Virus record (IMG/VR): IMGVR_UViG_3300005326_000040
Span: 160,001-224,000 of that record
From: a virus
Taxonomy: Duplodnaviria; Caudoviricetes
Length of the DNA: 64,000 nt
Direction: 5' to 3' (one strand)
The notes under the pieces are model-generated. The model did no database searches and had not been told where the DNA came from. It saw nothing but the letters and a program-made list of their open reading frames with translations. The translations under genes and the position numbers were made by a program. Of this stretch, positions 21,964-29,732 are shown one piece after another (position 1 is the first letter of the stretch; each line of letters begins with the position of its first letter).

Positions 21964-21993
21964 TTTTCATTCCCAACAAACGAACCGTAAGAG

Positions 21994-22030
21994 GCGGGGC
22001 GGTCACCAGACTGCCCCGCTTTCTTTTTCT
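21994..22030 (+). terminator. Rho-independent terminator
   Basis: GCGGGGCGG/CTGCCCCGC stem plus T-run. Confidence 0.85.
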
Positions 22031-22457
22031 AATACACATAGGACGCGCTTTCAATTCAAAGACGACCCAACGGTTATGATTGAATTGTTTGTCACTCAAA
22101 AAGAATTGAATGTAGGTGTATGTCTTACCTATAAAATGGGTGAATTATTTTAATTGAAGAGAGCTAGGAAGTGGAGATATATAAAACTCCGAGCGTAGCG
22201 AGGAGTTTAATTTAATTTAAATTTAAGTATCTGGTTAAAGATCTACTACGTAGATCTTTAACGCGAAAAATTTCGCAACATAAAAAATTTTCCACGTTCG
22301 GGTGCAGAATAATTATCACAAAAATAGAAAACATAAACACTTTTGGAAGCAATATTTGACGGTGTTCGTTTCCTCTATTTTTACCCTCAAAAAAGCTCAG
22401 CACACATTTGCACACAGCTGAACAGATTTCAACTCACATTATGCAATTTGAGTGTTC
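22031..22457. other. AT-rich non-coding region with palindromes (replication-origin candidate)
   Basis: No convincing ORF; 12-bp inverted repeat TTAAAGATCTAC/GTAGATCTTTAA (22235-22261), GCGAAA/TTTCGC, AT-only run ~22206-22226. Confidence 0.35.
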
Positions 22458-22486
22458 TTGACAGAACGAAAACCCCATGGTAGAGG
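22458..22486 (+). promoter_or_regulatory. sigma70-type promoter
   Basis: TTGACA-17 nt-TAGAGG. Confidence 0.5.
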
Positions 22487-22495
22487 GGGTGAGCG

Positions 22496-22650
22496 GCTCA
22501 GGTAACCGTTCGACACAACCGGGAAATTTGATACCTGAGTGAACGAATTGAAGCGAGTGTCCAACTTGGACAACCGCTGAACCAATTCTCACTGGAAATC
22601 AAAGGAAGGAAAGTTCGTTCAATCGTTGTTTTTGCCTCTTTATCTTGAGG
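22496..22650 (+). ncRNA. putative structured 5' leader / small RNA
   Basis: Stems CTCAGGTA/TACCTGAG; nested GAATTG..AGCG..TGTCC/GGACA..CGCT..CAATTC; competing TGAACGAA/TTCGTTCA; GCCTC/GAGGC. Confidence 0.45.
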
Positions 22651-22669
22651 CTGGTACACCGCAAGAACG

Positions 22670-27469: not shown

Positions 27470-27954
27470 TTTTTGACGTAAGTCATCATTATTCTATTTT
27501 GCTTGCGCTTGCTTCTCAGGCGCGAGCGCACATGGAAATTCTTGTCAAATTAGCAAAAGGTACATTGCCATGGGGGATGGCAGGGTACTGTGGTGTAGGT
27601 TCCAGACACCTTCAGTCTTTGGCTAAGTCTGCTGGAATCGATATTGATTTGGTATATGGTCGTTATAGCTCGAAGCGTCATTCTTCGGGTCATTGCTGGA
27701 CGGAATATCAAAATAAAGTAATTGATGTAACGGCAACGCAATTCTTTCGAGATCATATTGACGCTCCGATTTATCTATTTGACAAAGGATTTGACAAGCG
27801 CTACATTCCGTTGTATAGGAATGAGCTAGCGGATGAAGTCATTCGGTGTTGGACGCGGGAGCAGAATTATTATTGTTATCGAGATGCGTTAACAACCATC
27901 ACTCGATTGTATGGCTTATCGCTGATTCGAGCAATAACGGAACAAAGGGTATGA
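27439..27954 (+). CDS. transglutaminase-like (Cys-His-Asp) protein
   Basis: GYCG...GHCW.....VIDVTATQF; true start may be downstream. Confidence 0.55.
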   Translation: MPQARRTEQIVFDVSHHYSILLALASQARAHMEILVKLAKGTLPWGMAGYCGVGSRHLQSLAKSAGIDIDLVYGRYSSKRHSSGHCWTEYQNKVIDVTATQFFRDHIDAPIYLFDKGFDKRYIPLYRNELADEVIRCWTREQNYYCYRDALTTITRLYGLSLIRAITEQRV

Positions 27955-28457
27955 AAATGGGAACCGTAGACACTGGCGCTATGCAATATTTGTATATGAT
28001 TTTTGTTACCCCGCTTGGAAAGGGGTACGGTTGTTTTGCTATCAAAAGGAATGGAGATAACTACACAGTATCATCCTCTTACTGTCACCCAACAGATCGA
28101 AAGCTTTTCCGAAAGGAAGTAGCGAGGGACAAGGCTTGCAAGATGATGCTTGCGCCTCGTCGGAAGAGGTTGGAAGCTTTGGATTCAGTTGGTGCGAAGC
28201 CTTCTGTGACCGTAGTGTTCTCGAAGGAAAGCCCGCAACAGAACATTGAAAATGCAACGATTGTGAACGCTGCTCTTGAACAGCGGCTCATGATGCCCTC
28301 TTGGGCGAAGCGGGCGTACAATCTTCATCACTTTACGTGTGGCTTGACCAAGGACAATATGACTTGGAACAAGCTCGTTGCGGAAGTTGGCGCAGTAGAC
28401 TTCTTGCTTGATCATTTTCGAGCAATGAATATTGTTCACATGGACATAGATTGGTGA
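27951..28457 (+). CDS. hypothetical protein
   Basis: ATG 27951 overlaps previous stop; AGGG RBS. Confidence 0.75.
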   Translation: MKMGTVDTGAMQYLYMIFVTPLGKGYGCFAIKRNGDNYTVSSSYCHPTDRKLFRKEVARDKACKMMLAPRRKRLEALDSVGAKPSVTVVFSKESPQQNIENATIVNAALEQRLMMPSWAKRAYNLHHFTCGLTKDNMTWNKLVAEVGAVDFLLDHFRAMNIVHMDIDW

Positions 28458-28465
28458 AAGCTTAA

Positions 28466-28610
28466 GGTGGGGCCGGGAACCTGCAATTCCCGGTAAGGCA
28501 CAACAGAAGTAAAAACTTCGCCAGTGCCAAGCCCCTTCACGCGTAGGCTGGTATAACACACCCCTCCGCCTGAAGTCGCTAGACCAGTTTTCCGTGAAGG
28601 GGCCTCACCA
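28466..28610 (+). ncRNA. unclassified structured RNA with four-way junction
   Basis: Closing GGTGGGG/CCTCACC; arms CCGGGAA/TTCCCGG, GGCAC/GTGCC with inner GAAGT/ACTTC, GCCCCTTCACG/CGTGAAGGGGC; GC-rich island followed by pyrimidine run. Confidence 0.65.
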
Positions 28611-28660
28611 TGGTTTTCCCTTTCTTCTTTTTATCAACTTCAAATTAAAGGAAATTCTTT

Positions 28661-29041
28661 ATGAACGACCCTGCGGTTCGTGGTAAGAGTGTTTTGCGAG
28701 TTGTGCGATGCCCTTTGGATGGCCCGCCAGAGGTTATTGATCTGAAAAACGATTACAGGTGTTTTTCAGAAGCTGTTTTTGATAAGAGCACAGATACAGT
28801 TTATGGGTTTTATTCTGACATTTCTAGAGGGGGAGACAAGTTTGGCACTGATTATATGGTTATTTATGGTTATTATTCCCGCACGGTAAATGTGTATGGA
28901 TATCGCGGGATAATTCTTATTGTGAATTGGGATAAAGCTTCTAATAATGCTGTTGATATGAAGTGCTCAAATATCATTGAGGTCTTCAAAAAGATTACGC
29001 GTTCCAAAGCGGCAAGGAAGCGCGTTAAAAAGGCTAGATAA
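28661..29041 (+). CDS. DUF3846-like paralog 5
   Basis: LRVVRCPLDGPPEVIDLKN...DMKCSNIIEVF. Confidence 0.65.
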   Translation: MNDPAVRGKSVLRVVRCPLDGPPEVIDLKNDYRCFSEAVFDKSTDTVYGFYSDISRGGDKFGTDYMVIYGYYSRTVNVYGYRGIILIVNWDKASNNAVDMKCSNIIEVFKKITRSKAARKRVKKAR

Positions 29042-29042
29042 A

Positions 29043-29732
29043 ATGGGACTTAGACATAAGAACACTGAAGTAGACGACCATCTTATGGCGACTCTTCCTA
29101 ATCTTGCTCTTTCAGCTGAGCAAAAGGTGCTTGTTGAAAACAATTTGGGTTTGGTTGGACATATTGCCCACGCTTTTGCTGGTTACCAGATGGAACACGA
29201 AGAGTTGTTTCAGTGGGGTTGTTTTGGTTTAATGCATGCCGCAATGAAATACGATGCGGATAAGGGCGAATTCAAAAGCTATGCCGGAACGTGGATTCGC
29301 TGCTACATTAAGAGTGCGGTTAGATTTATGTGGAGCCAAGTAGTTATGAAAAAGACTACTGCGAAAGGAGGCTTTTGGTCGGAAGAAGGAAAGTTTCGCG
29401 GTAGACGTGATGCGTATCTTAGCGAAACGGTTTATAGAGATTCCGAGAATGTAACGTTGTTGGATACATTGTCTGCTAGTTCAGATGGTTCTGTTAATGA
29501 ATTTGAAAAAAGTGAACAGATTGATAGGTTGAGTAAAGTTATAGAAAAGGCAGAACAACATCCTACTTCGCCATTGCTTCCTCGTGAAAAGGAAGTTATT
29601 AAAATGGTGTATTGGGATGATCAGAATTTTGTTGAAATTGGTAAAAAGCAACATGCTCATAAGAATCGGATTGGCTTCGTGCATGACCGGGCGATGGCGA
29701 AGCTGCAACGCGCAGCTGCGCATATCCAGTAA
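29043..29732 (+). CDS. RNA polymerase sigma factor, sigma70 family
   Basis: Region 2 LVENNLGLV...EELFQWGCFGLMHAAMKYDADKG.FKSYAGTWIR; region 4 LLPREKEVIKM...FVEIGK...RAMAKLQ. Confidence 0.9.
   Translation: MGLRHKNTEVDDHLMATLPNLALSAEQKVLVENNLGLVGHIAHAFAGYQMEHEELFQWGCFGLMHAAMKYDADKGEFKSYAGTWIRCYIKSAVRFMWSQVVMKKTTAKGGFWSEEGKFRGRRDAYLSETVYRDSENVTLLDTLSASSDGSVNEFEKSEQIDRLSKVIEKAEQHPTSPLLPREKEVIKMVYWDDQNFVEIGKKQHAHKNRIGFVHDRAMAKLQRAAAHIQ

Follow-up and report, generated by a model that had tools for sequence, protein, structure and literature searches.

The species 1 and 2 RNAs of phage T4 (rnaC and rnaD) are small stable tRNA-like RNAs that are cut from polycistronic transcripts. The enzymes of tRNA processing normally read the T-loop or the D-loop. 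Bacterial RNase P also cleaves non-tRNA substrates, phage regulatory RNAs included (PMC4919922), and the C4 RNA of P1/P7 is cited there as processed by RNase P. In addition, another study reports that an RCCA end supported the cleavage of one non-tRNA substrate (PMC12710915). T7 R1.1 is cut by RNase III (PMC4858673). Meanwhile, the YrlA Y RNA (RF02553) has a GNCGAA motif and T and D stem-loops and is found within 4 kb of Ro60 (PMC4201824), and canonical terminators have a 7-8-nt U tract beside the hairpin; the terminators selected in one study had loops of 3-10 nt (bioRxiv 10.64898/2026.05.29.728758).

Here, we analysed a predicted structured RNA in an uncultured phage whose virus record is 338 kb. 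The window, namely the whole stretch of DNA that was analysed, is 64,000 nt long, and the RNA element is found on its + strand at 28466-28610 (at 188466 in the genome). This element is similar to T4 rnaC/rnaD and P1/P7 C4 in size range, closed multi-arm fold, CCA-like end and absence of a promoter. However, it matches no GenBank phage sequence and no Rfam C4 model, it is not located in a tRNA cluster, and no antisense target was found for it. Similar to T7 R1.1 (PMC4858673) and to the early hairpins of the same phage, it is intergenic, just past a stop codon, and it has long GC-rich helices and an internal loop in the lower stem; in addition, its arm 3 has the GCCCCU/AGGGGC base of the early family. 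However, the element is a predicted four-way junction and not a single interrupted hairpin, it does not have the lower stem and the pyrimidine internal loop of the early family, and its cleavage is putative.

[quoted passage not shown] Compared with intrinsic terminators and attenuators, the element occupies the terminator slot of related phages and has a GC-rich helix followed by a U-rich run, but about 130 nt of structure stands as the loop and the U tract is interrupted. Furthermore, a tRNA-shaped RNA of a related huge phage (G006:1197-1314), which was assigned to no RNA family, shares with it GGUGGG, three bases, GGGAA, a UGCAA loop and UUCCC, and in both RNAs GGUG pairs with CACC. In the G006 RNA this module replaces the anticodon arm amid acceptor, D and T arms, whereas in the element it stands alone with two unrelated arms.

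Genomic context of the RNA element

The phage encodes a gpA-type terminase, DnaE, RecA, topoisomerase I, trigger factor, TROVE/Ro60, about 20 tRNAs and a domain of the CCA-adding/poly(A)-polymerase family. No RNase III gene was detected in the phage genome. The comparison of DnaJ gave about 30% identity to many phyla, and no host was assigned. A second, independent assembly contained an identical sequence of the RNA element, and thus the element is not an assembly artefact.

An earlier note on this DNA had described the element as a GC island in AT-rich DNA, intergenic, followed by a pyrimidine/U run and then by a sigma-factor operon. The intergenic location and the U run were both confirmed. 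The element starts 8 nt past the stop codon of a 166-aa gene, its 3′ end is 50 nt from the next ORF (ATG at 28661), and all of the neighbouring genes are on the + strand. The GC content of the element is 57.9% against 41.3% in the window (46.7% in the upstream gene and 26% in the 3′ tail), but the surroundings are only moderately AT-rich. The sigma-70-family gene is real, but a 126-aa ORF intervenes between it and the RNA. The features of the locus are as follows.

27779..27807, + strand: nearest upstream sigma-70-like promoter match (10/12 consensus match only; total match count at chance level)
27957..28457, + strand: 166-aa gene, kept in related huge phages (stop codon 28455-28457)
28614..28632, + strand: pyrimidine/U-rich trailer, capable of weak pairing with the ribosome-binding site of the next ORF (28647-28654)
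28661..29041, + strand: 126-aa ORF between the RNA element and the sigma gene
29043..29732, + strand: sigma-70-family sigma factor of 229 aa, for which the examined relatives gave no detectable counterpart

The searches gave no function for the 166-aa and 126-aa proteins. In the searches run, the 126-aa ORF had no homologs outside the phage, and inside the phage it had one weak paralog. The promoter scan found no match able to start at the 5′ end of the RNA element. Thus, the element is probably located inside a three-gene transcript. Judged from the sequence, the match at 27779..27807 is a putative start of a unit that includes the 166-aa gene, the RNA, the 126-aa ORF and the sigma gene, and the next promoter match lies 3′ of the sigma gene. 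A role of the RNA in sigma expression, which the earlier note had suggested, is possible as a cis element of the same transcription unit.

Predicted structure

The positions in the RNA are numbered from 28466 = 1. The predicted parts are listed below.

28456..28462, + strand: outer 7-bp stem, 5′ strand (predicted), overlapping the upstream stop codon
28466..28474, + strand: closing helix, 5′ strand, 6 secure bp and up to 9 via branch migration
28472..28494, + strand: arm 1, a 5-8 bp stem and a 7-nt loop with UGCAA
28497..28528, + strand: arm 2, 5 bp, a 4x4 internal loop, 5 bp and an AAAA tetraloop
28531..28603, + strand: arm 3, whose perfect 11-bp base begins with GCCCCU and is followed by about 9 further bp
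28553..28582, + strand: apical loop of arm 3, 30 nt, C-rich, predicted open
28601..28610, + strand: closing helix, 3′ strand, ending in ACCA at 28607-28610
28612..28618, + strand: outer stem, 3′ strand (predicted)

In the folding model, the RNA element is a significant predicted four-way junction, and it is uncatalogued. It folds with a minimum free energy of -66.5 kcal/mol (z -5.5), which was equalled by 0 of 200 dinucleotide shuffles and 0 of 1000 mononucleotide shuffles. Among 250 random genome windows there was one with z below -5.5, which is a rough estimate with 15 shuffles each. Meanwhile, 145-nt folds of equal stability occur commonly in this genome within its GC-rich early region. The minus strand of the element folds about equally well (-69.9, z -4.1), and the + strand was assigned because of the gene direction and because some G-U pairs work only on this strand.

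The pair probabilities are 0.8-1.0 for the closing helix, arm 1, arm 2 and the 11-bp base of arm 3. Thus, the three arms that had been reported before hold, with 7-8 bp in arm 1, 5 + 5 bp in arm 2 and a perfect 11 bp in arm 3. The closing helix had been given as 6-7 bp; it is present with 6 secure bp, but it can extend to 9 bp by branch migration. In the model, the junction can migrate by 3 bp between two states. In state A, positions 7-9 pair with 27-29 and positions 66-68 pair with 136-138, whereas in state B, 7-9 pair with 136-138 and 27-29 pair with 66-68. State B has a 9-bp closing helix and a junction without unpaired bases, and it is 3-4 kcal/mol less stable. In addition, the outer 7-bp stem (28456-28462/28612-28618), which was absent from the first reading, is predicted to be separated from the closing helix by a small internal loop.

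The pseudoknot that had been proposed in the third arm is not supported. Its two helices, UAGGC/GCCUG and CUGGU/ACCAG, both use C83. CUGGU/ACCAG belongs to a nested 8-bp stem (80-87 with 118-125); with both compared as nested folds, this stem is favoured over the UAGGC/GCCUG alternative by 6.7 kcal/mol. The best reading of arm 3, in this prediction, is one longer nested hairpin of about 20 bp, whose C-rich loop is 30 nt long.

The ends of the element can be read in two ways, from G1 to A145 or from G4 to the ACCA; the stem of the latter has 6 bp and its CCA is encoded. In terms of a tRNA acceptor, this corresponds to a helix of 6-9 bp plus A, or to 6 bp plus ACCA if the RNA is cut at G4. The G1-A145 reading resembles the acceptor of the tRNA-Tyr of the phage. 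However, the base after the discriminator is U in this reading, and it is C in 21/21 listed tRNA and tRNA-like genes of the phage. Thus, only the G4-ACCA reading fits the phage tRNAs.

Comparison with known RNA families

The earlier note had recognized no known RNA family, and a cmscan-type check against Rfam agrees: nothing reached the gathering score, and what appeared at E up to 10 was at the level of chance. For tRNA (RF00005), the slot of the T arm holds the hairpin of about 20 bp with its 30-nt loop, and no T arm was found by T-arm scan, ARAGORN or Rfam. Arm 1 is in the position of the D arm, its loop is CCUGCAA with C at the U33-equivalent, and there is no D-loop. As for tmRNA, there is no ARAGORN or Rfam call, no T arm, and no G3-U70 in either register. 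YrlA was rejected because of the missing GNCGAA motif, the missing T and D stem-loops and the distance from Ro60, which is at 248248 in the genome.

Among ribozymes, the HDV-like class was rejected, since P3, P1.1 and P4 are not in the helix list, the P1-like helix is disfavoured, and Rfam gives no match. The cores of hammerhead, hairpin, twister and pistol ribozymes are absent by inspection, and Rfam gives no match to them at E up to 10. A canonical intrinsic terminator is not consistent with the AUGG before the U run and the loop of about 130 nt, and the terminator scan makes no call. Furthermore, the 30-nt loop matches the genome over 11 nt at most, compared with 9-14 for shuffles, which argues against an antisense RNA of the C4/CI type, and the duplexes of this loop with nearby sites are fragmented. 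There was no covariance-model match in Rfam to 6S, SRP, RNase P RNA or the catalogued riboswitches, and the signature motifs of RNase P and SRP are absent. The second helix of a T-box antiterminator is missing by inspection. A cobalamin riboswitch, a fragment of RNase P or SRP RNA, and a piece of tmRNA were also dismissed by inspection.

Other structured RNAs in the phage and its relatives

Several other structured RNAs were observed in this phage. Directly upstream of the TROVE/Ro60 gene there are three tandem Y-RNA-like repeats (L010:3890-4235, genome 247890-248235); the second one has a tRNA-type T arm, and the repeats are below the Rfam gathering score. A tRNA-Asn(GUU) at L002:7815-7946 (genome 27815-27946) includes a 57-nt structured insert after U33, which is too short for a group I intron. 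In addition, a tRNA-Leu(CAA) at 1425-1802 of the window is split by a group I intron, and ARAGORN predicts a tRNA with the anticodon TTA (ochre suppressor) at genome 28046-28121 (L002:8046-8121). tRNAs with a CTA anticodon were found in relatives of the phage. RNAs that are tRNA-shaped and have large inserts, or are without a normal anticodon arm, occur at genome 99076-99146, 73542-73678 and 231136-231280, and further ones occur near 83.8, 88.4 and 112.6 kb.

Among the related huge phages, G006 has a complete-looking bacterial-type RNase P RNA gene (G006:36380-36760, L280), and no such gene was found in the query phage by motif or Rfam. Two others have tmRNA genes (G005:55645-55997 and G012:207749-208102) with tags ending in AA. 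Two expanded tRNA-shaped RNAs of 137 and 125 nt are located at approximately G008:112245-112381 and 212765-212889, and ARAGORN makes no call of them as such.

Two short motifs weakly link the element with other RNAs of this kind. In the whole genome, GCCCC...GGGGC within 70 nt was found only in arm 3 and in eight early hairpins at 71-76 kb. Given the pair composition, the chance of this match is about 0.01-0.05. The region L004:11069-16165 (genome 71-76 kb) has at least eight intergenic GC-rich hairpins with the common GCCCCU/AGGGGC helix base, and three related hairpins are at 77.5-80.8 kb. The other motif is in the first 31 nt of the element, which are similar to the arm found in place of the anticodon arm of the G006 tRNA-shaped RNA (covariance-model E of 0.28 in 100 kb; the post hoc chance estimate for the pattern is about 0.001). 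No third example of this pattern was found in 30 records. The G006 RNA itself (L279:1197-1314) is a 118-nt tRNA-Leu-like RNA with an encoded CCA that ARAGORN missed; an extended arm replaces its anticodon arm, and its variable arm is also extended. A metagenome contig (L103:1-700) has tandem repeats of about 75 nt, each with an arm-1-like hairpin, and is probably unrelated.

Homolog searches and syntenic relatives

No full-length relative of the element was found by BlastN of GenBank phages and plasmids. Exact patterns were searched in IMG/VR, metagenome contigs and GTDB genomes (the metagenome collection with one 17-base pattern only), and the inspected matches were due to chance, some of them in coding DNA. 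A covariance model built from the single sequence found no homolog in 29 plus 50 viral records, in 1.6 Mb of four near-complete relatives, in 50 diverse prokaryotic genomes or, when run unfiltered, at eight syntenic loci. No second copy was found in the phage genome. The absence of homologs is not proven by these searches, since a one-sequence model is insensitive and most of the viral records are small fragments. In addition, scanning with stem descriptors gave too much noise to be informative, and a search of the literature on phage structured RNAs or T4 small RNAs found nothing relevant.

Contigs of related phages were found via homologs of the upstream gene and of a downstream 567-aa gene, and they have the same gene order. 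The RNA element was found after the upstream gene in none of the eight loci (seven are distinct, as L118 and L310 are nearly identical). Three contigs (L305, L306 and L310) cover the whole slot, and in them the upstream gene and a 295-aa gene flank other small genes, including Nudix, pyrimidine-dimer glycosylase and unknowns. No RNA element, no 126-aa ORF and no sigma gene was annotated or detected in these three contigs. Meanwhile, the same gap in L305, L310/L118 and L116 contains a simple GGCGGG/CCCGCC hairpin and a U-rich run, whereas in four other relatives the hairpins of the slot are different or weak. One two-sided change and one wobble distinguish the closing helix of the element (GGUGGG/CUCACC) from the GGCGGG/CCCGCC stem, and the AU after the closing helix is the same as in L305 and L310/L118. 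These comparisons suggest that the RNA was added in this lineage, as were the 126-aa ORF and the sigma gene, at a variable slot that often holds a terminator in relatives. At another syntenic position, a long AT-rich gap is found both in the window (21964-22669) and in L305 (4581-5861); the latter has two long direct repeats and is origin-like.

Discussion

The element was described in the earlier note as a novel phage ncRNA. The results are consistent with this as far as an uncatalogued structured element is concerned, but they do not bear out a discrete, conserved ncRNA, as the element has neither its own promoter nor a homolog. With the stop codon only 8 nt upstream and no promoter match at the 5′ end, a discrete RNA would need to be cut out of a longer transcript. 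Our leading, though still tentative, reading of the predicted fold is that the element is a lineage-restricted punctuation or processing unit of the + strand mRNA and is cut out of it. RNA polymerase would read through from the upstream 166-aa gene, and the four-way junction, closed by the ACCA-ended helix and the outer stem, would fold during transcription. Host nucleases might then cut it, either in an RNase III-type manner at the long helices or in an RNase P-type manner at the closing helix, and the U-rich trailer would be trimmed after the cut. The cut would separate the upstream message from the message of the 126-aa ORF and sigma, and a stable RNA of 142-145 nt would probably be left over. 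Here, the transcription, all of the cleavage steps, the enzymes and the role of the released RNA are what we infer.

The processing reading is favoured by the strong, well-defined fold, and by the many tRNA-shaped RNAs and long hairpins that this genome places in intergenic gaps. The CCA-adding/poly(A)-polymerase-family domain of the phage, the base motif that arm 3 has in common with the early hairpins, and the resemblance of arm 1 and the closing helix to part of the G006 RNA also point to it. Furthermore, the 6-bp stem plus ACCA of the G4 reading fits the C74 of the 21 listed genes. An RNase III signal has about two turns of helix around the cut, with or without an internal loop; in the prediction, arm 3 (about 20 bp) and the closing and outer stems (6-9 + 7 bp) are long enough and might serve as one, depending on the host enzyme and its box preferences. 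However, no homolog means no covariation, and the element is absent from the slot in all syntenic relatives. The missing T-loop and D-loop also weaken the processing reading, and so does the 5′ GGU of the element, which, by pairing with ACC, would make the RCCA of the precursor inaccessible. In addition, the phage is without a detectable RNase III.

The slot of the relatives suggests another origin, and a regulated or leaky terminator, similar to an attenuator or a riboswitch, is possible although on balance doubtful. An ancestral hairpin would have become the closing helix, and the three-arm domain would have replaced its loop; closure of the helix, opposed by a ribosome at the stop codon or tuned by a ligand or protein, would set the read-through into the 126-aa ORF and sigma. 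The GGCGGG/CCCGCC stem and U-rich run are in the exact slot in L305, L310/L118 and L116, the query stem is only a two-sided change and a wobble away with the same AU following in L305 and L310/L118, and the relatives that span the slot have neither the RNA nor the 126-aa ORF nor the sigma gene. In the model, masking of 15 nt after the stop codon also abolishes the closing helix. However, AUGG precedes the U run, the "loop" is about 130 nt and the terminator scan makes no call; there is no alternative antiterminator fold, and the modelled accessibility of the ribosome-binding site barely shifts (0.38 vs 0.30). Furthermore, stems of this G-rich/C-rich type are generic, and the hairpins of the four other relatives are different or weak. 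The links to the terminator stem, to the early hairpins and to the G006 arm are all weak, being short and spotted after the fact. Since the terminator stem and the G006 arm would both account for the first six bases, no more than one of them can be the origin of these bases. A new class of phage regulatory RNA, in which a multi-arm domain grafted into a terminator loop gates sigma expression by its folding, under the influence of a ribosome, a protein or a ligand, and comes partly from the tRNA-mimic hairpin module of relatives, seems rather improbable to us.

A fold more elaborate than a cut site requires might instead act in trans, as a decoy or scaffold that is released and engages a protein via the UGCAA hairpin of arm 1 or via the open 30-nt loop; a tRNA-handling enzyme, the phage Ro60, RNA polymerase or an anti-phage nuclease would be the partner. 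This proposal is unlikely. It gains from the recurrence of arm 1 in the G006 RNA (post hoc chance about 0.001), from the closing helix that is like the tRNA-Tyr acceptor of the phage, and from the Ro60 that the phage encodes. However, the element has no T-loop, D-loop, GNCGAA motif or 6S-like central bubble, it is 60 kb from a Ro60 gene with its own adjacent Y-RNA-like repeats, it has no antisense target above chance, and it is not conserved. The tRNA decoy of the earlier note is weak in particular, because the T-loop, D-loop and anticodon arm are absent and U follows the discriminator. The single copy, the missing homologs, the similar z in about 1/250 random windows and the comparable fold of the minus strand (-69.9, z -4.1) would suit an element without function, that is, a remnant of a palindromic or mobile insert, a DNA-level structure, or a chance GC-rich fold that arrived with the sigma cassette. 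This is distinctly improbable, since the gap between the stop codon and the U run is occupied by five independent short helices that nest without conflict and whose pairing is almost certain, several G-U pairs work on the + strand only, and no second copy was found in the genome. A ribozyme had also been suggested before; a self-cleaving one, whether it is HDV-like or belongs to a new class, is very improbable. The helix order in the first reading matches HDV-like P1/P2, and GCUAG resembles J4/2. However, no catalytic core is present and the pseudoknot is disfavoured: P3, P1.1 and P4 cannot form, the P1-like helix loses by 6.7 kcal/mol, and neither the hammerhead, hairpin, twister and pistol cores nor an Rfam ribozyme match (E up to 10) was found.

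The element is one sequence from one uncultured phage with no assigned host, and thus the reach of these results is limited until relatives or expression data are available. If it is a gated terminator, a new sigma cassette would be controlled by a remodelled terminator, which is an unusual design for a riboregulator. If it is a processing element, as we tentatively favour, the transcript punctuation of huge phages would gain a shape without any T-loop.
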